DNA from: Octopus vulgaris
Taxonomy: Eukaryota
NCBI GenBank assembly: GCA_951406725.2
Contig: OX597830.1
Coordinates: 25,110,001-25,174,000, forward strand
DNA length: 64,000 nucleotides
Direction of reading: 5' to 3'
Made by a program: the position numbers and the translations under genes. The notes below the pieces were generated by a model, which made no database searches, was not told the origin of the DNA, and worked only from the letters and a program-made list of their open reading frames with translations. How positions within the stretch are numbered: the stretch's first letter is position 1; each line of letters begins with the position of its first letter. Below are positions 13,700-64,000 of the stretch, piece after piece.

Positions 13700-15631
13700 T
13701 GATAAATAATCAACAAACACTACTTAGGGTGGAGGATTAGCACAATCAATAGAATGTTGAAGGAAATACTCCATGGTATTTTTTCTGGCTTTTTCAACTC
13801 CCTCACGATCAACTTATTTAATTAATTCAACATAAAGATGACATTATCAAGAAACGAATCAGCATCCATATACAACTATTTCATTTTGTCATACGTTGAA
13901 GTTTGCTCAAATTGAAACAGCCTTTCATTCATCTAGGAGTGATAAAATAAGTATTGGTTAATATATTTTATCAGTTCAAATGACTATGCAGTTCCTCTAC
14001 AAATATGTGGTCTTGTGTCAATGTAAGAAACTATGATTTCTTACTTTAATAATGAATTTAAAAAAAAATTTACTTTGCACAATGCTACAATTTGTAACAC
14101 TGACACCAATAAATGCCAGTAGCTTATTTATCTTATAGAGTGAAGGGTAAAAAATTCTACAGGGATCACACTTAGAACATGGAAGACAACACTATTAGCT
14201 ATTCTATCAACCATTCAACATGTTCTATTATTGCTGCTGCTCTACTGGCTTTAATGATAATAGTTTATTACATATAAATATCTTATAGCGTTTTATATTT
14301 CTATCCTGCTGAACCTTCCCCAATGTCAATAATTGTTACAATACCAATTCGTGTTGAACCATCAACATCATGCCACGATGTAAATGAGTTGAACCAAACA
14401 CATTCTTGTTAATATTTTAATATGTAGCAAGCTGGCAGAACAGTTAGTGCACTGGCATTTTGTCCATCTTTACTGAGGTAAACTTTGCTTTTCATCCTTT
14501 TGAGATCAATAAAATTGGTACCAGTTAAATACTGAGGTCAATGTAATAGATTTATCCCTTCCTTCCGAAATTGTTGGCCTTGTGTAAAAATTTTAAATCA
14601 TTATTGAAGTTGCCAATGAATTGTCTATCCACCATAGATAAACAGAAACGGTACTCCCAAATAGGGTTCAATATAGTTTCAGTCTCCTGAATTTAACATA
14701 CAAGGCTTTGGTTGACCAGAACATATGGTAGAAGACACCCAAGGGGTTAAATCAGAAATCTTGTAGTCATGAAGTGAATTTCTTAACCACGTGGTTATGC
14801 TTGTTTATTTACTGAAAGAGAAGTATGCTTTTTGGTGGACTTTTATCAATGCATATATATTACCTCAGTGAAATGTTTCGCTTTGACCTAGGCAAGAAGA
14901 GAGGATACTTCATTGTATCTTCTGCTCATCTGCCAATTTTGAGTTCAAATGTAGTTGGGTCAATATTGACGTTTATACTCCAAAAGTAGATAAATAATTA
15001 AGTTTCCTATAATGGGAAATACTAATGGAAGGAACTAAAAACATGATTAATAACAAATGTCTCCTATGGTGTAATTTTTGTTTGTTAGTTTGTTTTTTTT
15101 AGTTTCAGTGTTACTAATATTGATATTTGTTGATTTCATTAATTTCTCAAACATCCAAATGTGAGTGTGTATATGAGTGAGTATTTAATAAACCTATGAA
15201 CATTAGCCTCAGCAAATATTTTGATCTTAATGAACCAAACTATGGATCCACTGTCAGTTCAAAATTAACTTTGGAATTTTTCTTTTTTAATTAATAAAAG
15301 AAGGGTTGATGGCTCTCCTGGCTTTTAAAAGCTTTCTCAGACTGATGAAACTGATGCTATTAATATTCATTTTGAATATCTGTAGATTGATGTTTGTACA
15401 GAAAAAAAAGACAGAATTCCAGAAGGTAAATAAATCTTAAGAGAAATGACTGAAAAAGCAGTTTGATTATAGGATCTAGGAGGAAAGTGATACATTAAAA
15501 ATGACAAGAAGAGGAGACGGAGACATGCACATTAGTAAAGCTATGAGGAAGTGGCTTACAAATTGCTAATTCAAAGTAGACACCATTGTAACAGCAATGG
15601 GAGAAGTGGAAACAAGATTCAGTGTTCTGTA

Positions 15632-29220: not shown

Positions 29221-30491
29221 TTGGGTCATCCCATAAATATGGTTTTTCCAATTGCCTGAACTAAAAGTCAGAGGGAGACGGGAAAAATTATCTGCATTAA
29301 TTTGCTGTAAAAGCAGGTAGTAATTTTACTTTGTCTTTATTCTTAGTACAAGTTATGAAGAGCACAGTTTGATTTTAACAGTTATTTTTTCAAAGCTATA
29401 ATGGAACAAAGGAGCATATTCAACATATTTTGCTTTATGAGTTCAATAAAGGCAACAACGCAACAGGAAGGGTGAGTAATATTAATGCAGTATATGGAAA
29501 TCAGACAATAAGCTTAAGCCAGTGTCAACGGTGGTTCCAGAAACTCCAAGCTAGAAGATGAACCTCATCCTGGAAGATCTGTAGAGCTCGACAAGGACAT
29601 CCTGCAAACCCTGGTGGAACAAAGTCCTATCGTAACTGTTGAGGAACTAGCAGAGAAGCTTGGATTTGGTCATTCAACCATTCATTGACACCTGCATGCC
29701 ATCGAAAAAGTCAGCAACTTGGGTCAGTGGGTTCCTCACAAACTTTCTGAGTTTAATTGCATGCAGAAACTGAAAAAGTGAATGTGTGCTCTTCTTTGCT
29801 GTTATCTCTCACAAATAAGCCTGTTTTGGACAAAATAGTGACCGGTAATGAGAAATGGGTTCTCTATAAAAATGTCAAGTGCCAGACACAGTGGGTAGGG
29901 AAAGGAGAAGCACCAGCACCCCAGGCTAAAGAAGGTCTTCATCCTAGTATGATGTTGTTATTTGTTTGGTGGGATATGAAAGGTTTAGTCCACTTTGAAT
30001 TTTTAAACCCAAACCAAACGATAACACAGCAGACCTACTGCAAGCAGCTTGAACGGCTTAAGTCAGCACTAAAAGAAAAACGACCATCCTTGGTTTCAAG
30101 ACAAAAGGTGTTCTTCCATCAGGATAATGTTCAGCCACATACAGTGAGGATTACATTCCAAAGGCTGGAGCAGTTTGAAGGGGAAATGATGCCCCACCCA
30201 TCATATTCACTAGACATTGCTCCATCTGATTACTATCCATTCCACAGTCTTCAAAATCATTTGGATGGAAAAAATATTAATTCTGTATATGAGATCAGAA
30301 CAGAACTAGAGGAGTATTTTTCTTCACGGACAAGTGAATTTTGGAAGAGGGGGCTTGAAAGTCTACCAGATAGATGGAAGAGCATTGTAGAAAATGAAGG
30401 AGAGTATATTTTAGATTAAAAAAGAACTTTATCTTAATTTTGAAAAATAAAAGAAGTATATAAAGACCACATTATTTATGGGATGACCCAA
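29221..30491 (+). mobile_element. Near full-length mariner (DD34D) element, inactive
   Basis: TIRs TTGGGTCATCCCATAAAT / ATTTATGGGATGACCCAA with TA on both sides. Transposase motifs WVPHKL, VTGNEKW (first D changed to N), FHQDN, HPSYSLDIAPSDY. The N-terminal half has stops and frameshifts. Confidence 0.92.
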
Positions 30492-38080: not shown

Positions 38081-38299
38081 AATAAATAGCTTTCTTTATT
38101 ATAATACAGATGTGGCTAATTCTGAGAAACATTACTTTCATTATTTACACATCATTACTCTGTAATTTTGGTTCAAATTGAAAGTGTGAAACTATTTTCA
38201 CTTTCTCATGAAATCTGGTCATTGTAGAGAAGTGTATTTCAAATATCTATAACTGGTTGTTGAGATAACATAGAAAATATGTAAATGAAAATATATTTG

Positions 38300-39992
38300 A
38301 CATGTGTAATTGACTTGATTGTTCTGGTCTTAACATCAGTTGGTAAGAATTGAAGTCATTTGACCACACCTTTTGGTTTGTAATTGGCTCTCTTGTTGTA
38401 TGTTCAATCTGTGGAATATTGAAATGACACCCATCTTGTCCATTCCACAGAATAAGAGGATACTGGAGAGCATCATAAGAGGGATGAGTTTGTGAAACAT
38501 GTTTAATGTTGTTATCTCAAACATGAATGAGAATATCATGATTTTCATGGGGATCACCAACAATAAGATGGCTACTTCATTAGATGTGGGCTCATTAAAA
38601 CAGCATAAAATGTTCTTTACTATATATGTAATGAATGCAGAAACACACACATACTCACAGACACGTAAACACTCATAGAATTGATAATTTTGAAAACAGC
38701 AAAACATACATACACGAAGTTCATGCAAAACGAAATGTAGTCAATATAGGTGCAAAACATACTTTCTGTAGCATAGGTATGCTATAAAAAAAATGGAAAG
38801 TCACCAATTTAGCAAAAGTTACTATGCGTCACCAATGTAACAAAGGACAGAAAGTAAACATTTATTTGGAACATGTACTAAATGTTATAAAATTCACGAC
38901 TGAATGAATGTCACGGTGAAGAAAGTGAAAGGCCAAGAAAATTCTGAAAGCATAATTCAATTCTTCATTCAAAAATAATTTATTTTACAATTTTGAAATG
39001 AACACTGAACAAAGTGTATAGAAAGGAATATGCTGCTGTTGTGAACATTAATTTAAAACATTTGCTGAAGGATGTATGTAGCAAGATATACATTAATTTG
39101 ACATTACTATATATATTTTTAACTGTGTAATGTTATAGGTAGTAGAATAAATATTAACGTAGTAAAAAGGTTGTACAACATTGATACTCACAATGATGAA
39201 AAAGCACAGCAGGAATACAATAAGGACTGTTAAAAAAAGCATTATCTTCAAACTCGTTAGAAAGAGTAGAATAACATTCCTGTCATTATATTGAAAGAGT
39301 CGATGAGGCTTTCTACTTCACCAAGTTTCTGAATTTGTTATAATAATAAGACTAACATTTTTTTTTCAGATACATTTGTGAGTACTGTGAGTGCTGTCAA
39401 ATCAGCCAAATCTTCATGTTGATAGTACTTGAAAGTGAATGCTGTTGTTCGTTTAAAGTCTAGGCTGCAACTAAACTAAACTTTCAAATCAGCGTATTTC
39501 ACTGTTGGCAGGGGTGGGGTGAGTAAAGTCACATACATACACTAAGACACACACATACAGACATACATTAACGCACACCTCAAGACTATCTCTGTCCCTG
39601 TGTGTGTCTGTCTGTCTTTAGATGTGTGTGTGTGTGTGTGTCAGTCATCACAAAATGTATGTATACTGACAGACACATACACCATCACACACATATACTT
39701 GTCAGTCATCGGCCTAACGTACATAATGAACGTGCAAACATACCCATATAGAAAATGTGATGCCATCGTCATTGTGTTGGTGGTATAAAATGTCGTTTAC
39801 AATAGGTGACTAATAGAAAAATGATAATGTTAAATTTTTGTAATGCAAATATGAGATTGAAAATATAGTTTAGTTAGTAGCCAAAAGCTTACTGAATCTT
39901 TTGTTACCCCATACATCAAAATTGATAACTTGGTTTTGGAATGCATAAGGAACATATGCACACATATACAAACTCTCTTTTATAGATATAGA
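38300..39992 (-). mobile_element. Helitron remnant with RepHel coding fragment (38300-38605) and probable 5' end at 39992
   Basis: Minus translation FNEPTSNEVAI/IVGDPHENHDILIHV*DNNIKHVSQTHPSYDALQYPLILWNGQDG...YQLMLR. A|TCTATATCTATAAAAGAGAG start at 39992. Joining these two parts into one element is inferred. Confidence 0.65.
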
Positions 39993-43867: not shown

Positions 43868-49071
<5,204 letters not shown>

Positions 49072-49555: not shown

Positions 49556-50107
49556 AATGCTATGGAGACGTGGCAGACTTTGTATTTGTTCTGGACTCCT
49601 CTAGCAGTATTTGGCCTCCAGACTATAACAGATTGCGGTCATTTGTTGATAATTTTGCAAAAAACTACGATATTGGACAAGGGCCATGCCAAATAAAAAT
49701 GGGTGTGGTATCATACAGCGACAAGGCACATGTTGACATACCACTCGACAAATACAAAGATAGATGGGCTGTATCAGATGCAATTAAAGATGTTCCTTAT
49801 CGAATGGGACAGACAAACACAGCTGATGCCTTGGACCTTACAAGGAAAATGTTTGAACGTCCTTATCCACAACCTGAAAGACCCCAAGTTGCTATTATTG
49901 TCACTGATGGAACATCAGACAATCGTTTAGAAACAAGAAGAAAAGCTCAGAAATTAAAGGATGCCGGCATTCATACATACTCTGTTGGAGTAGGAAACAA
50001 TGTTGATTTGCAAGAATTAGTGGACATTGCCAGTACATACCCGAAAGGAATTGTTCGTGTACCAAGCTATAAAGCTCTTGAACAGATTGCAATCAGTTTT
50101 AACGTCA
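49556..50107 (+). CDS. Internal exon encoding a von Willebrand factor A domain (matrilin/collagen VI-like)
   Basis: Poly-T tract plus AG at 49554-49555, donor A|GTAAGT at 50107/50108, length 552 nt (phase 1-1). CYGDVADFVFVLDSSSSI (DxSxS), GQTNTA, AIIVTDG, YSVGVG...ELVDIAS give an intact MIDAS with no stops. Confidence 0.92.
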
Positions 50108-50699
50108 GTAAGTAGTCCTTTTTATCACATTTAAAAATATAATCTCCATTATTCTATTTTTTAAAATAAATTAGATATATTTTACCAAAAAGAAAGTGCA
50201 AGAACAATTACTATTAGAAGTCCATGTAAAACTGAAAAGTCCAAAAAATACTCACTTGGTATTTTTTTTATTCATATAGGTGAAACAACTTACAAACAGA
50301 TGTGAAATTTAAAAAAGATACAAATCATATTTTATTTCATAAACAATATCTAATGCAAAGCATTTTAACATTAAAATATTATTGAAGTAGAAAGCATATG
50401 TAAAACAATGTTTGGTTTGGGGTTGAGCTAAAAGATATTAACTTGGATAAATAGAGATTATAATAAGTTTTGTGCATAGCTATCTTCTCTTAAGATCTTA
50501 AGGGCCTTTTAACTTTCAAAAAGAAGCTAATTTTGGTAATACCATGACAATTGAATTTACATGAAGGCCATTTCAAATTTGAAATTTAATTTCCAAGATT
50601 TTTTAAACAATGAGAACGAGTGCAATTGTCCATCCTTTAAATAACTAGCATGCTCTTAAACATGATTTAATAGCCTGAGTTTCTTTGGGAAAATCTTCA

Positions 50700-52145
50700 T
50701 CATCTTCTTCAGCAGCAGCATCACCATCATAGTTTAACATCCATTTTCTATGCTGGCATGGGATGGTTGGTTTGACAGGAGTTTGCCAGCCAGGGAGCTG
50801 TCCAGACTTGAGTTTTCTGTTTGGCATGGTTTCTACAGCTGGATGCCCTTCCTAAAGCCAACCACTTTACAAAGTGTGCTGGGTGCTTTTTACGTGTGAC
50901 TGGCATGGGTGCATTTATGCACCACTGGCACAAGGGTGTTTACACAGCACCAGTGTAAGTGCATTTTACATGGCACTGGCACCTGCAAAGAATTTGCCTG
51001 TATGTATGGATGACCACAATTTTATTTATCTTGACACATCTTCTCAAGTACAGCAAATCACCACAACTCCCAGTCCCTTGTCGTTTCCTCAGTGAGGTTC
51101 AGCATCTGAAGATCTTTTCTTAATACTTCATCCCACATCTTCCTACGTCTACCCCTTCCACAGATTCCCCCTAGTCCCCACAATTAGAGATTGACAACTC
51201 TTTACATAGCTGTTCTCATCCACATGCATCACATAACCAAACCAATGCAGCCATCTTTCTTACACACAACATCTGATGCCTCTTAAATCCAGTTTTCTCT
51301 TAGATCATTCTGTCATGTGTGCACATTGACATTACCCATCCATTGGAGCATGCTAGCTTCATGTTTTTCAAGCTTTTATAAGTCCTCTAGAATCACAGCC
51401 CATGTTTCACTGCCATGTAGCATAGCTGTATGTACACAGGCATCAAAGAATCTGCCTTTTACTCTGAGACAGAGGTTCTTAGTTACCAACAGAGACAGAA
51501 GCTCTTAGAACTTTACCCAGTTCATTCCTATTCTAGCAACTACACTTTCAGAACATCCTCCTCCACTGCTAACTTGGTTGCCAAGGCAACAGAAGTTATC
51601 TACTATTTCTAAGGATCTCCCTGGGTATTTGAAGATGTCTATTGTCTGCAAATATTTAATGCTTACTGTAACTGCACATTTGCCAAAGATTATTTTTTCT
51701 GTTAGCCTTCCTGTGATACTGCTACACCTGTTATATGTCCAAAGCTTGCACTGGGTACAATGCATAGAGTTTCTACCAACATCCTTCTTACATATAGAGC
51801 AGGGTCATTTTCCTGAAGAGACTTGTGATTTGTTTGTTTTCCTACTTAGGAGGAATTTGGTCTTTGCTAGATTAACTCTAAGGCTCTTAGATTCAAGGCT
51901 TCACTTCCACACCTGAAATGTCTTCTCTAGGTCATGTAGTGATTCAGCTATAAGATCATCAGCAAAGAGGAGCTCTCAGGGACAGACAGTCTTGAATTCC
52001 TCTGTTATGGCATGGAAGATTAGGATAAACGAGAGGGGACTGAGAACTCATCCTTAGTGAACTCGTACCTCTACACTGAATTAATTGCTACACTCGTTGC
52101 CAACCTTCACCTTACTGGCAACATTCATGTACATGGCTTGTATAT
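50700..52145 (-). mobile_element. 5'-truncated RTE-like LINE in the intron
   Basis: GSVLSPLSF, ELLFADDL RT motif, CTQCKLW...RCS, EIVDNFCCLG, and (CAT)n-type tail at about 50700. Confidence 0.82.
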
Positions 52146-53848
52146 ATAAAAAAATGATTGCCTGTCAGACACTCCAATAATTTCAATGATAAAATGAGAT
52201 TTTAAGATAATTATGGCAAATATTTAAAACTTGTGTGTCCAAACTATTTTTGTTTCCAGCATAACATTTAGATCTTATTATTTCCAAAGCTTAGAATATA
52301 AGATCCATAGATCCAGTTTTCTGTATAAAAAGCATGTTATATATTTATATTTTTAGAGATAAGTAACATCCATAGTTTATTTATACATTTCTTAGTATGT
52401 AAATAATATCAATGTGAGTAAAAGTAACAACAGCAGTAGCATTAATACTAGTTTTATTTTTTCATATAGTACTTTTGAAGAGACATAAGTTTCTAACCTT
52501 CAAACTGGAATCATAACTTACAAGTTGCTTCATTGATAGATTTTGAGCAGTGCTCAAATACCTAACCTTTATCATTCACTAAAATCAAGAATAATGTATT
52601 TTATGTCAAGAAAATCAAAAGTTGTGATGTTCATGATTTTCTGAAGTAATAAATATAAAATGGTAGGAGTGAATATGTGTGTTTTTGTGCTGTGAAATGT
52701 ATCACTATATGACTTCCATTTTAGAAAGATCAATTTTACGCTATTTATTGTCAGTTCTGCAACATGACACTGGTTTTTTATCTTCTAAGAATGTTCCTGT
52801 AAAACATGTTGACTTAGATAATATGCATAAGACTATTACTACCAACAAAATATACTTGTATTCTTCCTTTTGTCACAACTCCGAATGACCCTGTTCAAAA
52901 GAAAATTAATCATAAAAATTTCCAACCCATATAAAAACAATTGTATAGTCTTTCTTTCTACTTCTACTGTTTTTACTGCTCCAATATTTTTCACTATAGA
53001 TGCCACTTCATTCCATTTATTCAATCATTTTTATCAAAACCCAACTCCCTTAAGTGTCTCACTGAATCTCAAGATATATCCAACTCACAACCTATGCACT
53101 GTAATATCTTGCTTGTTACTTGTGAACCCTAGTATTTGATCAACTACCTCCATATAATAATAGATAATTAAATTAATTTAAGGTCATAGACATGACTTTT
53201 CCTCTTTAAACTAATGAATTAAAATAAAATAAGTCTAATTATACAAATTTAATAGTACTGCCTTGTTCTATGATTCATTGAATGAGAACTTTTATAAGTG
53301 CCATTATCAGGAATAAAACTGTTCAAAACCCAACTGACTTGTTCCCTACAGCAGAACTGTCAAACTTGTTTGATTTTGTGCCACATTGCAGTATAAACTA
53401 GATCTTGTGGGCTGGATAAAAACATTATTCTTTTAATAAAAAGATTATTCTTTTAAAAAACCTTATTTATAGTGTTGATCAAAATAAATGGATTGAGGTC
53501 TTAATATACATTATAACAATTTCATTAACAATAAAGAAAGGAAGAGAATATGATGTGGTTGCAAGTCTGTGAGCAGAGATGTGTGGGGAAAAACTCATCC
53601 ATATAGGATATATATATATATTTATATATATATACAGTCCTATTAAGTAAGAGTACTTAGTGTGAGGATGGAGACAGAAATTGTCTATATGAATACATAC
53701 AGGTCTTGAGAAGACATCAATGCTTGATAAAAAACTTATACTGTCTCAACTACAAAAACCCTTCAACATAGTGTATATATCACCAAAATCTATTCAGATG
53801 AACAAATGCATAACTTTGGGGGAAAAAAAGAAAAATCAGTTTGCTTCA

Positions 53849-53885
<37 letters not shown>

Positions 53886-55295
53886 AAGTGAAGGGGAAAT
53901 AGGTCACATTTTTTAGTATTTAATTCATAAGCTTCTTTGTCATTGGATGAGACTCCATTAGGTCATCTAATACACTCTAACTTCACAGACTTGTCCTGCC
54001 AGCCAGCACTCTCTTTCTCTCCTCTGAATCATCTCTTCTGCCATTCCTCATATACTCTTGCCCATCTTATCATCCATTCTACCTTTCTCATTTTGATGTC
54101 ATTGTTGTTTCTCTCCAACTCTTTTCCTCAGTCACATGTGAAAATGTACACCCCTTAATTTATTGAAGACTTCCTATACTTATATTTACTCCCCTATTCC
54201 CACCTCGTAAATAACTATTTCTGACCCTTCTGCCAACACTGTTCCTTTCCAAATTTACATTCACTGTGAACATGGCATCCCCCACTTATTGTTCACACTG
54301 CAAAGTTATTGACTAAATGAGCAGAGATAGTGTAGTATAATAGCATTGTCTCACTCAGGATTATTCAACCCACTTAATGTTTCTACCATGAGAAAATGCA
54401 CCCAGAACACTATGTAACATGGTTGACATTAGGAAGGACATCCAGTCATAGAAACCAAACCAAATGACTTTGTAAATTTAGATCATGACAACTTGTTCAA
54501 TTCATGTCACCATGAAAAGCAGACATATAATGATGATGAATGATTTTTAAAAATGATTAAAGTTTGTTACAAAGATAAAAGAAGAAATTTTGGTTTAGTT
54601 TTAAATATCTTTATATAAGAAACAAGAGGACATAATGAGTGGTCCATGGAGAAGAATGCTTGAATGACTGCTTTACTATATCTAGTTTGACACTACACTG
54701 TTTTCATTTGAAATTTTGTGCAAGCTTAAGCTTAATTCTAACCTGCTAATAAAATAAATAATATATCAGAGCAGATCAACTGTCTGTATATCCTTCCCAT
54801 AAAATTTGCTTTTACATAGCTAGAAATTGTCAATTTTACTGCATCACACAAACTTAACCAATCAATACTTCTCAGAAAATGTTAAAGTTCGATTTTACAT
54901 ATATTTCCCCATCAACTTAAAAAAGTAAAAACTTACATATATTCAGCTGTTCTTATTCTTTAGTCTAAAAGTACTTTATCTTCAGACTAATTATAAAATT
55001 TAGAAATTTTAAAAAATCTGCATTAGAAAAATGTCAATTAAATAAAAACGTTTCTCAATTGACAAAAATGCATATGTATTTTGTTAGGCTAATCATAAAT
55101 CCTGGTATTGTAGGGAAATTGGATATAATTACTTCAATCAGTCCTTGTGTAATATTGGTTTAAATTTAATAAAGAGTTGAAGTCAGAGTTTACATGTGTA
55201 AAACTAAATAGTGCAAGACATTCCTTCTAGCAACTTCCTTCAAGCAAAAATTATTATATGAAAATACATTAATATACATCTTAATTTTTCTTCAG

Positions 55296-58200
55296 AGAAG
55301 ATGACAACCCCAGCATATGCACCAACTACAGCAAGGATACCTGAGGTAACATCACAGATATTTTATCAACTTTCATCAAAAAAAATAACTGAAATTACAA
55401 CAGCATCTCAAATACCTGAAATTACATTAACATTTGAAAATAGGGAACACAGGGGTAAAAGTGACGATGACAAAACACAAACCCTGACAACATTGACGCC
55501 AAGCATAACATTCCCAATGGTTAAACAAACAGTGACAAAGAAACCACTATCGAAAGCTACACCTTCAATGACAACTTCTAAAAGACTTACTACAACACCA
55601 GTAATGACACTTATAACAACTACACATAAAATAACAAAGACACCCATGAAACAAACCACAACCGCAGTATTAACAGACACAAATACAAACTTGCAACAAA
55701 CAAAATTAACACACAATGTAACAACATATTCAACACCAAAGGAACACAAGGAGAATACAACAGAATCTACATTAACACAACTTCAGAATAAAACAACTGA
55801 ATTGATATACAACGAAAACTGGAATAAGACATTACAAAATGAAACAGATACCAAAATGGTTGATCACCTTACATCATTCACAAGCACAGTAATGACACAC
55901 CCAAACCAAATAACAAAAATAAAAGAGTTTAACACTCCAAACACTACCATAGTGCATAGGAACATAACAACAATAACAGAAAAACCCATTTCATATAATA
56001 ATATAACAACACATCCTCAAGAGCATGTTAATATCACAAAAGATAACGTAAGTACACAGGGATCTTTACAAAACACAGCACACACTAGTATAGAAATACA
56101 AGGAATTACAGAGCAAGATGACATGAAAAGACAAACAACAAAAGGAATTACACAAGAATATATACATACAACAGAAAAAATACCTGAATACACACAAATT
56201 CATAAATATCATGTCAAAACAGCACCCACTAACATTATAAGTGAACAGCAATATACAACTCAGGCATCAACTGAAAAGACTCTCATAATGACTCCACCAC
56301 GAAGCACACCAGAATTGCTTACAAAACTTATCACAGTCACAACAACACATATTCCGTCAACAAGCCAAATTCAAACAGAAACTATGAAATCAACTTCCCA
56401 ACATCCTCAAATAACACACGTTCACACATCTATTGGTGAACATACAACACAACTCAGAGATATTCTAACAACAGTGATTACACCACTTCTCACCACACCT
56501 ACCAAACAAACAACTCTAGCTAAAGTTGTACAAACGTCCATGCCAATCACAGATACTGCTAGCAAACTACACGTAGTAACTCAAACAACAATTGCTTCAT
56601 CAACAACAGATCACACTTCTGCCACTGAAATACCACTCACCGATCAAATTATGACTAAGTATAGAACTCATTCATCGATAGAAAAGACTCCAGAAAATAC
56701 TACGCCATCAAGCACACCAAAACTGCTTTCACAACCTATCACAGATACAACACAGATTACTTCCATGAGTCACATTCAAACACAAACTGACGAAACTACT
56801 GCTAAACTTCCTCACACAGCACACATTCACACATCTACTGTTGAAAGCACAACGCAACTCACAGAGGTTCAAACACCTCAGATTCCATGGCCGAACAACA
56901 CAACTGCTGAAAAAACAACGCTCTCAACTCTACCTGAATATGTTCAAACATCTATGCGAACCACACTTACCACTACCAAAATGCACACAAAAAAAAACAT
57001 GACTACTACTTCATCAACAACAGAACACATCAATGTGACTAAAATACCACTCACAACGCAAACTAACAATCAGTATACAACTAAAGCACCCACTATAAAA
57101 ACACTAGAAACATCTATGCCCACCACAATTTCTGCTCCCACATTGAGTATACCAACTAAAACAACTATTGCTTCCTCAACTGCAGAACAAACGACTGTCA
57201 CTGAACTGCCACGCACTCACAAAACTACAACTCAAGCTACCACATTCACATCGACTGTAAAGACTCCAGAAACAACCACACAAACAGGCACACCAGAAAT
57301 GATTACAGCACCTGTCACGGACACAACTGCACACATTGCATCAACAACACAAATTCAAACAGAAACCAAGAAGACAACTTCCCAACTTCCAACACATCTT
57401 TTAACACCTACTACTGAAACAACAACACAACCTGAAGAAATTATTACAACTCACACTGCAGAATCTCGAACAGCGACAACAAAACTACCATCTCTAACAA
57501 CTCTAGCCGAAGAAGTAGAAACATCTATGCACACCACAATTTCTGCTCCCACAGTGAGTACACCAACACAAACAACTATTGCTTCCTCAACTGCAGAACA
57601 TACGACTGTCACTGAACTGCCACGCACTGACAAAACTACAACTGAAGCTACCACATTCACATCGATTGAAAGGACTCCAGAAACAATCACACAAACAGGC
57701 ACACCAGAAATGATTACAGCACCTGTCACGGACACAACTGCACACATTGCATCAACAACACGAATTCAAAAAGAAACAGAGAAGACAACAACCCAACTTC
57801 CTACAACAACACATCTTATAACACCTACTACTGAAACAACAACACAACCTGAAGAAATTCTTACAACTCACACTGCAGAACCCATAACAGCGACAACAAA
57901 ACTACCATCCCTAACAACACTAGCCGAAGAAGTAGAAACATCTATGCCCACAATTTCTGCTCCTACAATGAGTACACCAACTCAAACAACTATTGCTTCC
58001 TCAACTGCAGAACATACGACTGTCACTGAACTGCCACGCACTGACAAAACTACTGAAGCTACCACATTCACATCGACTGAAAAGACTCCAGAAACAACCA
58101 CACAAACAGGCACACCAGAAATGATTACAGCACCTGTCACGGACACAACTGCACACATTGCATCAACAACTCAAATTCAAACAGAAACCGACAAGACAAC

Positions 58201-61200
58201 TTCCCAACTTCCTACAACAACACATTTCACTGAAACAACAACACAACCTGAAGAAATTATTACAACTCACACTGCAGAACCTTTAACAGCGACAACAAAA
58301 CTACCATCTCTAACAACTCTAGCCGAAGAAGTAGAAACATCTATGCCCACCACAATTTCTGCTCCCACAGTGAGTACACCAACTCAAACAACTATTGCTT
58401 CCTCAACTGCAGAACATACGACTGTCACTGAACTGCCACGCACTGACAAAACTACAACTGAAGCTACCACATTCACATCGACTGAAAAGACTCCAGAAAC
58501 AACCACACAAACAGGCACACCAGAAATGATTACAGCACCTGTCACGGACACAACTGCACACATTGCATCAACAACTCAAATTCAAACAGAAACAGAGGAA
58601 TCAACTTCCCAACTTCCTACAAAAACACATCTTATAACAACTACTACTGAAACAACAACACAACCTGAAGAAATTATTACAACTCACACTGCAGAACCTC
58701 TAACAGCGACAACAAAACTACCATCTCTAACAACTCTAGCCGAAGAAGTAGAAACATCTATGCCCACCACAATTTCTGCTCCCACAGTGAGTACACCAAC
58801 TCAAACAACTATTGCTTCCTCAACTGCAGAACATACGACTGTCACTGAACTGCCACGCACTGACAAAACTACAACTGAAGCTACCACATTCACATCGACT
58901 GAAAAGACTCCAGAAACAACCACACAAACAGGCACACCAGAAATGATTACAGCACCTGTCACGGACACAACTGCACACATTGCATCAACAACTCAAATTC
59001 AAACAGAAACAGAGGAATCAACTTCCCAACTTCCTACAACAACACATCTTATAACACCTACTACTGAAACAACAACACAATCTGAAGAAATTATTACAAC
59101 TCACACTGCAGAACCTCTAACAGCGACAACAAAACTACCATCTCTAACAACTCTAGCCGAAGAAGTAGAAACATCTATGCCCACCACAATTTCTGCTCCC
59201 ACAGTGAGTACACCAACTCAAACAACTATTGCTTCCTCAACTGCAGAACATACGACTGTCACTGAACTGCCACGCACTGACAAAACTACAACTGAAGCTA
59301 CCACATTCACATCGACTGAAAAGACTCCAGAAACAACCACACAAACAGGCACACCAGAAATGATTACAGCACCTGTCACGGACACAACTGCACACATTGC
59401 ATCAACAACTCAAATTCAAGCAGAAACAGAGGAATTAACTTCCCACCTTCCTACAACAATACATCTTATAACACCTACTACTGAAACAACAACACAACCT
59501 GAAGAAATTATTACAACTCACACTGCAGAACCTCTAACAGCGACAACAAAACTACCATCTCTAACAACTCTAGCCGAAGAAGTAGAAACATCTATGCCCA
59601 CCACAATTTCTGCTCCCACAGTGAGTACACCAACTCAAACAACTATTGCTTCCTCAACTGCAGAACATACGACTGTCACTGAACTGCCACGCACTGACAA
59701 AACTACAACTGAAGCTACCACATTCACATCCACTGAAAAGACTCCAGAAACAACCACACAAACAGGCACACCAGAAATGATTACAGCACCTGTCACAGAC
59801 ACAACCGCACAATTGCATCAACAACTCATATTCAAACAGAAACAGAGGAATCAACTTCCCAACTTCCTACAACATCACATCTTTTAACACCTACTACTGA
59901 AACAACAACACAAATTGAAGAAATTATTACAACTCACACTGCAGAACCTTTAACAGCGACAACAAAACCACCATCTCTATCAACTCTAGCCGAAGAAGTA
60001 GAAACATCTATGCCCACCACAATTTCTGCTCCCACAGTGAGTACACCAACTCAAACAACTATTGCTTCCTCAACTGCAGAACATACGACTGTCACTGAAC
60101 TGACACGCACTGACAAAACTACAACTGAAGCTACCACATTCACATCGACTGAAAAGACTCCAGAAACAACCACACAAACAGGCACACCAGAAATGATTAC
60201 AGCACCTGTCACGGACACAACTGCACACATTGCATCAACAACTCAAATTCAAACAGAAACAGAGGAATCAACTTCCCAACTTCCTACAACAACACATTTC
60301 ATAACACCTACTACTGAAACAACAACACAACCTGAAGAAATTATTACAACTCACACTGCAGAACCTCTAACAGCGACAACAAAACTACCATCTCTAACAA
60401 CTCTAGCCGAAGAAGTAGAAACATCTATGCCCACCACAATTTCTTCTCCTACAATGAGTACACCAAATCAAACAACTGTTGCTTCCTCAACTGCAGAACA
60501 TACGACTGTCACTGAACTGCCACGCACTGACAAAACAACAACTGAAGCTACCACATTCACATCCACTGAAAAGACTCCAGAAACTACCACACAAACAGGC
60601 ACACCAGAAATGATTACAGCACCTGTCACGGACACAACTGCACACATTGCATCAACAACTCAAATTCAAACAGAAACAGAGGAATCAACTTCCCAACTTC
60701 CTACAACAACACATCTTATAACACCTACTACTGAAACAACAACACAATCTGAAGAAATTATTACAACTCACACTGCAGAACCTCTAACAGCGACAACAAA
60801 AACTACCATCTCTAACAACTCTAGCCGAAGAAGTAGAAACATCTATGCCCACCACAATTTCTGCTCATACAGTGAGTACACCAACTCAAACAACTATTGC
60901 TTCCTCAACCTCAGAACATACGACTGTCACTGAACTGCCACGCACTGACAAAACTACAACTGAAGCTACCACATTCACATCCACTGAAAAGACTCCAGAA
61001 ACAACCACACAAACAGGCACACCAGAAATGATTACAGCACCTGTCACGGACACAACTGCACACATTGCATCAACAACTCAAATTCAAACAGAAACCGACA
61101 AGACAACTTCCCAACTTCCTACAACAACACATCTTTTAACACCTACTACTGAAACAACAACACAACCTGAAGAAATTATTACAACTCACACTGCAGAACC

Positions 61201-64000
61201 TCTAACAGCGACAACAAAACTACCATCTCTAACAACTCTAGCAGAAGAAGTAGAAACATCTATGCCCACCACAATTTCTGCTCCCACAGTGAGTACACCA
61301 ACTCAAACAACTATTGCTTTTCCAACTGCAGAACATACGACTGTCACTGAACTGCCACGCACTGACAAAACTACAACTGAAGCTACCACATTCACATCCA
61401 CTGAAAAGACTCCAGAAACAACCACACAAACAGGCACACCAGAAATGATTACAGCACCTGTCACGGACACAACTGCACACATTGCATCAACAACTCAAAT
61501 TCAAACAGAAACAGAGGAATCAACTTCCCAACTTCCTACAACAACACATCTTATAACACCTACTACTGAAACAACAACACAATCTGAAGAAATTATTACA
61601 ACTCACACTGCAGAACCTCTAACAGCGACAACAAAACTACCATCTCTAACAACTCTAGCCGAAGAAGTAGAAACATCTATGCCCACCACAATTTCTGCTC
61701 CCACAGTGAGTACACCAACTCAAACAACTATTGCTTCCCCCAACTGCAGAACATACGACTGTCACTGAACTGCCACGCACTGACAAAACTACAACTGAAG
61801 CTACCACATTCACATCCACTGAAAAGACTCCAGAAACAACCACACAAACAGGCACACCAGAAATGATTACAGCACCTGTCACGGACACAACTGCACACAT
61901 TGCATCAACAACTCAAATTCAAACAGAAACCGACAAGACAACTTCCCAACTTCCTACAACAACACATTTCATAACACCTACTACTGAAACAACAACACAA
62001 CCTGAAGAAATTATTACAACTCACACTGCAGAACCTCTAACAGCGACAACAAAACTACCATCTCTAACAACTCTAGCCGAAGAAGTAGAAACATCTATGC
62101 CCACCACAATTTCTGCTCCCACAGTGAGTACACCAACTCAAACAACTATTGCTTCCTCAACTGCAGAACATACGACTGTCACTGAACTGCCACGCACTGA
62201 CAAAACTACAACTGAAGCTACCACATTCACATCGACTGAAAAGACTCCAGAAACAAAACACAAACAGGCACACCAGAAATGATTACAGCACCTGTCATGG
62301 ACACAACTGCACACATTGCATCAACAACTCAAATTCAAGCAGAAACAGAGGAATCAACTTCCCAACTTCCTACAACAATACATCTTATAACACCTACTAC
62401 TGAAACAACAACACAACTTGAAGAAATTATTACAACTCACACTGCAGAACCTCTAACAGCGACAACAAAACTACCATCTCTAACAACTCTAGCCGAAGAA
62501 GTAGAAACATCTATGCCCACAACAATTTCTGCTCCCACAGTGAGTACACCAACTCAAACAACTATTGCTTCCTCAACTGCAGAACATACGACTGTCACTG
62601 AACTGCCACGCACTGACAAAACTACAACTGAAGCTACCACATTCACATCCACTGAAAAGACTCCAGAAACAACCACACAAACAGGCACACCAGAAATGAT
62701 TACAGCACCTGTCACGGACACAACTGCACACATTGCATCAACAACACAAATTCAAAAAGAAACAGAGAAGACAACTTCCCAACTTCCTACAACAACACAT
62801 CTTTTAACACCTACTACTGAAACAACAACACAACCTGAAGAAATCATTACAACTCACACTGCAGAAACTCTAACAGCGACAACAAAACAACCATCTCTAT
62901 CAACTCTAGCCGAAGAAGTAGAAACATCTATGCACACCACAATTTCTGCTCCCACAGTGAGTACACCAACTCAAACAACTATTGCTTCCTCAACTGCAGA
63001 ACATACGACTGTCACTGAACTGCCAGGCACTGACAAAACTACAACTGAAGCTACCACATTCACATCGACTGAAAAGACTCCAGAAACAACCACACAAACA
63101 GGCACACCAGAAATGATTACAGCACCTGTCACGGACACAACTGCACACATTGCATCAACAACTCAAATTCAAACAGAAACAGAGGAATCAACTTCCCAAC
63201 TTCCTACAACAACACATCTTATAACACCTACTACTGAAACAACAACACAACCTGAAGAAATTATTACAACTCACACTGCAGAACCTCTAACAGCGACAAC
63301 AAAACTACCATCTCTAACAACTCTAGCCGAAGAAGTAGAAACATCTATGCCCACCACAATTTCTGCTCCCACAGTGAGTACACCAACTCAAACAACTATT
63401 GCTTCCTCAACTGCAGAACATACGACTGTCACTGAACTGCCACGCACTGACAAAACTACAACTGAAGCTACCACATTCACATCGACTGAAAAGACTCCAG
63501 AAACTACCACACAAACAGGCACACCAGAAATGATTACAGCACCTGTCACGGACACAACTGCACACATTGCATCAACAACTCAAATTCAAACAGAAACCGA
63601 GAAGACAACTTCCCAACTTCCTACAACAACACATTTCATAACACCTACTACTGAAACAACAACACAACCTGAAGAAATTATTACAACTCACACTGCAGAA
63701 CCTCTAACAGCGCCAACAAAACTACCATCTCTAACAACTCTAGCCGAAGAAGTAGAAACATCTATGCCCACCACAATTTCTGCTCCCACAGTGAGTACAC
63801 CAACTCAAACAACTATTGCTTCCTCAACTGCAGAACATACGACTGTCACTGAACTGCCACGCACTGACAAAACTACAACTGAAGCTACCACATTCACATC
63901 GACTGAAAAGACTCCAGAAACAACCACACAAACAGGCACACCAGAAATGATTACAGCACCTGTCACGGACACTACTGCACACATTTCATCAACAACTCAA
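55296..64000 (+). CDS. Giant Thr-rich mucin-like exon (runs off the window, four 1-nt frameshifts in the given sequence)
   Basis: Acceptor TTTTTCTTCAG at 55285-55295, 1528-codon open frame, T/E/P/S-rich and Cys-free. Repeats continue in shifted frames (60010, 60845, 61731) and are open again from about 62260 to the end. Confidence 0.88.
57111..64000 (+). repeat. Coding tandem array of 417-bp (139-aa) units, about 16.5 copies visible
   Basis: ACATCTATGCCCACCACAATTTCTGCTCCC recurs at 417-bp spacing (e.g. 58754, 59171, 59588). Early units carry small in-frame deletions. Confidence 0.95.

Follow-up and report, generated by a model that had tools for sequence, protein, structure and literature searches.

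A 64,000-nucleotide (nt) stretch of Octopus vulgaris DNA (the window; G000:C17:25110001-25174000) carries part of a gene that consists of a VWA-domain exon, a 38.6-kb threonine-rich exon and a last coding exon for a second, degenerate VWA domain, with both of the junctions between them seen in sequence contigs. The gene probably encodes a secreted, O-glycosylated, dumbbell-shaped protein of around 13,000 residues that arose by expansion of the linker of a two-VWA matrix protein. We examined 150 kb downstream in addition to the window itself; positions above 64,000 continue the window count, and the features of the locus are collected in Table 1.

The original prediction, made from the window sequence, spliced the phase-1 end of the VWA exon to an acceptor at 55295 to give the reading FNVKKMTTP. 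The exon coordinates and the translation confirm this, with the junction reading ...FNV-K-KMTTP in frame. The giant exon runs 29.9 kb beyond the end of the window, extending in full from 55296 to 93879 (G000:C17:25165296-25203879; 38,584 nt as assembled) and ending at a phase-1 donor. Inspection of the downstream exons, which had been suggested as a check, uncovered the degenerate VWA domain in the last of them, and a tblastn search of the 150 kb returned no second canonical VWA domain. When joined, with frameshifts stepped over, the three exons encode 13,239 residues (1.43 MDa), and the only cysteines are at positions 1 and 44.

Both ends of the giant exon are spliced in contigs that are probably derived from RNA. 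The VWA exon or part of it is contained in 16 of the 24 runs listed, which have no tissue label and whose RNA nature is guessed. Six different runs were compared, four at each junction (X1, X2, X5 and X6 at the 5' junction; X1, X3, X6 and X7 at the 3' junction). The 5' junction lies within a 2,584-nt X1 contig, which joins 50107 to 55296 with no mismatches and no gaps and continues past 57050, so that the predicted splice is found exactly in one of the four runs. For the corresponding X6 contig, from another species and another study, the observed depth of 3.06 agrees with the 3.07 calculated for a match extending 91 nt beyond the junction, and the X5 contig spans only part of the VWA exon and is uninformative about the junction. 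The 3' junction is present in X1 and X3, which skip 6,488 nt bounded by GT..AG, and X6 makes the same join (three of four runs, from two studies); X7 displays no joint and is counted as no evidence. Because these joins are intron-free and lie at canonical sites, we argue that the contigs come from RNA. Contigs also extend as far as the repeat arrays of the giant exon from both of its unique ends.

With 16 frameshifts stepped over, the giant exon translates without a stop into 12,861 residues containing no cysteine and 95 N-glycan sequons (T 33.6%, S 9.0%, P 8.1% and E 8.0%; T+S+P 50.7%). Tandem repeats within an exon that are rich in proline, threonine and serine (PTS), the mucin criterion of Pajic et al. 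2022, are present as arrays of 417-, 405- and 18-nt units, and the 417- and 405-nt units share 67% DNA identity. We rejected the idea that the 417-nt unit is a dispersed satellite or mobile element, as in the assembly it matched nowhere but this locus (a lower bound on its occurrence). The 18-nt repeat, which encodes Arg-Arg-Pro-Thr-Thr-Thr, forms a basic patch between the two acidic arrays, and this patch could be a polyanion-binding or protease site.

The first exon encodes a confident VWA domain (Pfam E 4.7e-33; predicted local distance difference test (pLDDT) of the model 89). All residues of the metal-ion-dependent adhesion site (MIDAS) are present in conserved columns (D13-x-S15-x-S17, T88 and D117), as the original prediction of a MIDAS-intact domain had it. 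The domain contains Cys1 and Cys44 (window 49687-49689) and lacks the closing C-terminal cysteine found in all ten paralogues described below; Cys44 is new in the domain and may either pair with Cys1, giving the domain an internal disulfide once more, or remain available for dimerisation. The domain in the last exon scores under the Pfam cut-off for VWA (E 0.0017), and its model (pLDDT 83) matches the VWA domains of PTMP1, integrin I and collagen VI at template modelling scores of ~0.5-0.6. It has neither a MIDAS nor any cysteine, including the cysteine present in nine of the ten paralogues, and 17 residues follow its last helix. The best solved relatives are collagen VI alpha-3 and mussel PTMP1. 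A complex prediction for the two VWA domains scored 0.02, which speaks neither for nor against their binding each other. The earlier picture of one head on a free stalk therefore gives way to a predicted dumbbell-like protein, because a second, degenerate VWA domain sits at the C terminus.

The same two domains recur in a family of molluscan proteins. Ten two-VWA paralogue loci lie on C4, at 95.44-95.54 Mb and 101.28-101.67 Mb (two clusters) and at 175.28-175.30 Mb (single) (L033-L051), each with a MIDAS VWA exon and, 1.8-37 kb further on, a degenerate one. Threonine-rich linker frames of 85-207 amino acids (aa) are present in nine of the ten. Identity to these paralogues is 39-45% for the first VWA domain (nine paralogues) and 27-37% for the last (ten paralogues). 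A profile search with the last domain retrieved 217 proteins at E <=0.001, 150 of them listed. Among 168 proteins with VWA hits, 27 have a MIDAS-degenerate and 34 a MIDAS-MIDAS-degenerate arrangement. The 20 family members that we looked up came from octopods, cuttlefish, bivalves and gastropods, or were unnamed, and full-length cephalopod members have linkers of 7-316 residues. Family members carry automatic names such as cartilage matrix protein-like and collagen VI/XII-like. They include O. bimaculoides XP_014774205.1, XP_014771412.1 and XP_014768754.1, Argonauta GAB1599319.1, Mytilus CAC5389271.1 and Haliotis XP_046581489.1, and share with the present gene a MIDAS VWA first, a degenerate VWA last and a threonine-rich linker between them. 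Here the linker, on its own 38.6-kb exon, comprises ~12,860 residues rather than 7-316, both conserved cysteines have been lost, Cys44 is new, and the location of the gene on C17 sets it apart from the C4 clusters.

A tree built from 35 rows of the last domain (midpoint root) pairs the gene with O. bimaculoides LOC106879988 and places it among cephalopod members with 100/99 support and on a long branch (1.39). LOC106879988 (P0018, XP_014785251.1) is a partial orthologue of 862 aa that preserves the 3' end, with threonine-rich units, the unique tail and a last VWA domain 88.6% identical to that of O. vulgaris; it differs in that its annotation, as an uncharacterised fragment, lacks the first VWA and has hardly any array. 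Given this orthologue, the mucin form was likely present before the two octopus species separated. The existence of ten paralogues and many mollusc proteins with the same two domains and short linkers means that the gene likely represents mucinization of the linker of a mollusc two-VWA matrix protein. Thus, the protein, predicted earlier to be lineage-specific, belongs in stretched form to a VWA-linker-VWA' family found across the molluscs (VWA' being the degenerate domain). Of the two parts proposed for a homology check, the VWA domains have relatives across the molluscs, and the 139-aa (417-nt) unit matched nowhere else in the O. vulgaris assembly (again a lower bound). No full-length database protein was found at 322-2000 aa, at 100-321 aa (where one intron-read-through frame, P0009, was present) or at 2675-5000 aa, which is weak evidence throughout. 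Long tandem runs of near-identical VWA exons also occur at C23:38.04-38.34 Mb and C3:144.7-144.8 Mb of the same assembly.

Matrilins have EGF repeats between their VWA domains and a C-terminal coiled coil with cysteines, and membrane-tethered mucins have a transmembrane helix after SEA, NIDO/AMOP/VWD or EGF domains. In the octopus protein there is no cysteine between or after the domains, and the last exon folds as a VWA domain and ends in a stop. Gel-forming mucins are described as having three N-terminal VWD-C8-TIL units, a central PTS domain and a C-terminal cystine knot or VWC (Lang et al. 2016, PMC4948705). The central PTS domain is present here. No VWD-C8-TIL unit was found: Pfam finds only VWA, there are two cysteines in 13,239 residues, and at most 193 nt of upstream exon sequence is seen. 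In place of a cystine knot or VWC, the last exon encodes a cysteine-free VWA and then a stop. The claim that the protein is neither a gel-forming nor a membrane mucin is thus borne out by Pfam, the cysteine count and the C terminus. On these sequence features the gene is classed with the mollusc VWA-linker-VWA' family and apart from gel-forming mucins, membrane mucins and matrilins.

The end domains of lubricin (PRG4) are somatomedin B and hemopexin. Lubricin is a tri-block protein with adhesive ends and a mucin brush in the middle (PMC11674473), which is the arrangement predicted for the octopus protein; the two differ in that the end domains are unrelated and in that the lubricin brush measures 200 nm, as against ~3 micrometres predicted here. 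Mussel PTMP1 (PDB 4cn8, 4cnb) is, like the octopus protein, a mollusc matrix protein with two VWA domains, binds collagen (PMC4754843), and is the top or second structural hit for both domains, but it has 454 residues and no mucin region. Human MUC12 and MUC4 resemble the octopus gene in having one huge repeat exon and frame errors in assemblies and differ in being membrane-tethered (PMC13345508). The octopus protein is no record holder, as it is surpassed by the longest MUC12 allele reported there (23,080 aa); the octopus exon is longer than the longest MUC4 allele (27,843 bp). Lineage-specific mucins can arise by mucinization, in which an existing secreted protein gains exonic PTS repeats (Pajic et al. 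2022, PMC9417175). The octopus gene shares with those cases exonic PTS repeats between conserved ends, whereas the mammalian cases start from proline-rich proteins, and here there are two folded VWA domains, surviving short-linker paralogues and a gain of ~12,700 residues. Passages of PMC7333891 concern VWD, not VWA, and a description of this gene or architecture was not found in result listings of the open-access literature.

Upstream of the VWA exon, the RNA contigs extend through a further 105-193 nt of exon sequence. Full-length relatives open with hydrophobic signal-like peptides, encoded partly by a first exon and partly by a 28-nt micro-exon, and the giant chain would, by analogy, be secreted as these relatives appear to be. 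In four of the five paralogues traced, the 28-nt micro-exon carries part of the signal region. Candidates for the signal exon in the window are given in Table 1; two others (38285-38342 and 206-250) were rejected as lying within dispersed repeats, and a 9-nt micro-exon at 48066 as lying within a locally repeated element.

From its composition, we infer that ~5,500 Ser/Thr residues would be O-glycosylated, stiffening the middle of the protein into a hydrated bottle-brush of ~3 micrometres at 0.25 nm per residue. The N-terminal VWA would bind an acidic site on a partner through the MIDAS cation; because PTMP1 binds collagen, collagen or another matrix or mucus protein is a likely ligand. The C-terminal VWA would provide a second, metal-independent grip. 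The brush might then loop or bridge between its ends, as in lubricin, and so keep an epithelial or matrix surface hydrated, lubricated or spaced. As it has only two cysteines, such a protein would form a network through end contacts instead of disulfides.

A related possibility, less likely but appreciable, is that the protein serves inside connective tissue as a spacer, holding collagen fibrils together across a hydrated brush much as a matrilin or aggrecan would, with no role in external mucus or adhesion. This shares the mechanism set out above and differs only in site, so the two are not exclusive. The nearest solved relatives bind or belong to collagens, and none of eight peptides of the protein was found in the examined part of a skin-mucus peptide table, in which one of six paralogue motifs, an unspecific one, occurred (PMC10138644); this result is weak either way. 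The examined table is, however, incomplete and its search database may lack the protein, and VWA proteins have been reported in octopus and snail mucus (PMC11431876, PMC10475054).

Several observations count against the giant-protein reading as a whole. Among the runs compared, no contig spans either array, and the whole exon is presumed to be kept in one mRNA. The X2 contig containing the VWA exon does not go on into the mucin body. The frame is broken in the assembly, and 38,584 nt is not a multiple of 3. Two low-depth X6 contigs (depth 3.3 and 2.2) have 1-nt deletions at 55361 and 55643, which are either errors or a broken allele in the X6 species. Amino-acid differences from unit to unit are close to the neutral expectation: there are 165 non-synonymous and 71 synonymous changes where 166 and 62.5 would be expected. 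Finally, repeat homogenisation makes substitutions shared between units non-independent, so the deficit of stops reported below is weaker than its Poisson figure.

The X2 contig raises the question of a shorter product. This 948-nt contig leaves the VWA exon at 50107, and no more than 50 of the 228 nt that follow fall at the start of the mucin exon; the depth predicted for 50 nt is 1.607 and that seen is 1.61, compared with 6.04 predicted for plain read-through. An alternative form can thus be inferred in X2, whose joint is not displayed, and the short form may be dominant in that run. If the main product were a short two-VWA protein like the paralogues, the giant exon would be mostly skipped or removed as an exitron from the donor at 55345, perhaps to an acceptor at 93048, and the giant form would be minor or tissue-restricted. 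The X2 match ends at 50 nt, exactly on a GT donor, the top-scoring acceptor within the giant exon (93048, with copies at 86633 and 88427) shares the phase of that donor, and skipping the whole phase 1-1 exon would also preserve the frame. Splicing from 55345 to an in-phase acceptor near the exon end would remove a 37.7-kb exitron and leave a protein of paralogue size. However, the X1 and X6 contigs read through 55345 into the mucin body, X1 is unbroken across 93048, the acceptor is a guess, and the arrays have been purged of stops, which needs translation. We therefore consider it unlikely that the short protein is the main product; a shorter splice form probably coexists with the giant one. 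We also put forward, as a tentative and fairly unlikely proposal, that by alternative splicing one gene yields two products: a two-VWA cross-linker that is short and of ancestral type, and a micrometre-long mucin, poor in cysteine, that networks only through its VWA ends. Such a mucin, evolved from a matrix protein whose linker was stretched some 40- to 180-fold, would make a metal-tunable, non-covalent mucus or gel matrix, and the length of the exon would be free to vary from tens to hundreds of kb among octopods.

The giant-chain reading also requires that the frameshifts be accounted for. More than 2,900 in-frame codons had been claimed for the window; as assembled, the frame is open for only 1,529 codons, with the first stop at 59885 and 26 stops before 64000. 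It closes because of four single-base insertions or deletions (indels) in 417-nt units, and because these sum to zero the frame at 64000 again matches. Over the whole giant exon there are 16 frameshifts by frame-path search and 17 by unit alignment. All 16 fall within the 32.9 kb of arrays and none in the other 5,647 nt of exon sequence, and each is confined to one unit, whereas 141 of the 373 distinct substitutions recur in more than one unit and five units have a 6-nt deletion in common. Stop-making substitutions are absent in the first array (0 of 236 in 27 units, 5.9 expected) and in the second (0 of 137 in 47 units, 4.4 expected, with two intervals of 990 nt left out and two apparent stops discounted as alignment artefacts); zero against 10.3 expected has a Poisson probability of ~3e-5, a figure that is overstated as the units are not independent. 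The unique parts of the exon differ from same-species RNA contigs at 0-1 positions, and in the X6 contig at the 3' end the species differences are all in frame (12, 6, 3 and 6 nt). Long-read consensus errors in repeats give frameshifts of this pattern. Similar loss of frame is known for human mucins (PMC13345508). Because the frameshifts are restricted to single units and no substitution creates a stop, we conclude from the sequence that they are very probably assembly errors. That they are instead real, marking a recent pseudogene or, in this individual, a truncated protein of the VWA domain and ~1,500 threonine-rich residues, would fit the early stop, the exon length and human MUC19, which has no complete frame in long-read haplotypes (PMC13345508), but is highly unlikely given 16 indels without one stop substitution, their restriction to arrays and to single units, the agreement with same-species RNA and the conservation of an orthologue in O. 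bimaculoides.

Table 1. Features of the locus and its surroundings, in window positions (continued beyond 64,000 for downstream features) or in the coordinates of the named locus.
Feature	Position	Strand	Description
N-terminal VWA exon	49556..50107	+	552 nt, phase 1-1, AG/GT ends; covered whole by X1, X2 and X6 contigs
Intron	50108..55295	+	GT..AG, 5,188 nt; absent from X1 contig
Giant internal Thr-rich exon, window part	55296..64000	+	acceptor AG at 55294-55295
Non-repetitive Thr-rich start	55296..57104	+	603 codons, 14 N-glycosylation sequons; X1 match without mismatch to 57050
Possible alternative donor	55345..55346 (with L032:648)	+	GAG/gtaaca, phase 0, 50 nt into giant exon; suggested by X2 depth
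417-nt (139-aa) unit array	57105..64000, on to 68559	+	16.6 copies in window, 27.5 in total
Single-base frameshifts in window 417-nt array	near 59807 (-1), 60805 (+1), 61736 (+1), 62256 (-1)		four different units
18-nt array	69140-69450 (L011:5140-5450)	+	~17 copies of Arg-Arg-Pro-Thr-Thr-Thr
405-nt (135-aa) unit array	70902-92383	+	~50 units, 12 frameshifts; unique tail follows
Last coding exon	100368-100951 (G000:C17:25210368-25210951)	+	phase-1 acceptor, 193 further codons, degenerate VWA, then stop
Candidate signal-peptide exon	15345..15425	+	ATG, 27 codons, hydrophobic core, strong phase-0 donor; DNA unique in the assembly
Alternative candidate exon	15386-15425	+	40 nt, phase 0-1
Further micro-exon candidates	22126, 25693, 40161
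Mariner-type transposase fragment	29757-30419	+	Pfam Transposase_1, E 1.6e-25
DUF7083 fragment	47366-47767	-
Reverse-transcriptase fragment	L014:482-898	-	in last intron
Downstream neighbour, RRM protein exon	L020:6872-7345	-
Downstream neighbour exon	L019:4219-4374	+	no Pfam hit; by motif, presumably metallophosphoesterase-like

In summary, the locus offers a clean invertebrate case of mucinization: short-linker paralogues, two related arrays and both junctions are visible, and the steps from a matrix protein to a giant mucin can therefore be traced. The exon is large but not a record. The gene contributes a further mucin design, VWA-PTS-VWA' nearly free of cysteine, which belongs to neither the gel-forming nor the membrane class. 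In annotation such a gene has been reduced to a fragment, so that searches of octopus mucus proteomes may have lacked it. As sequence comparison suggests, the mucinization route known from mammals has likely been followed here from a precursor with two folded domains and to a far greater extent.

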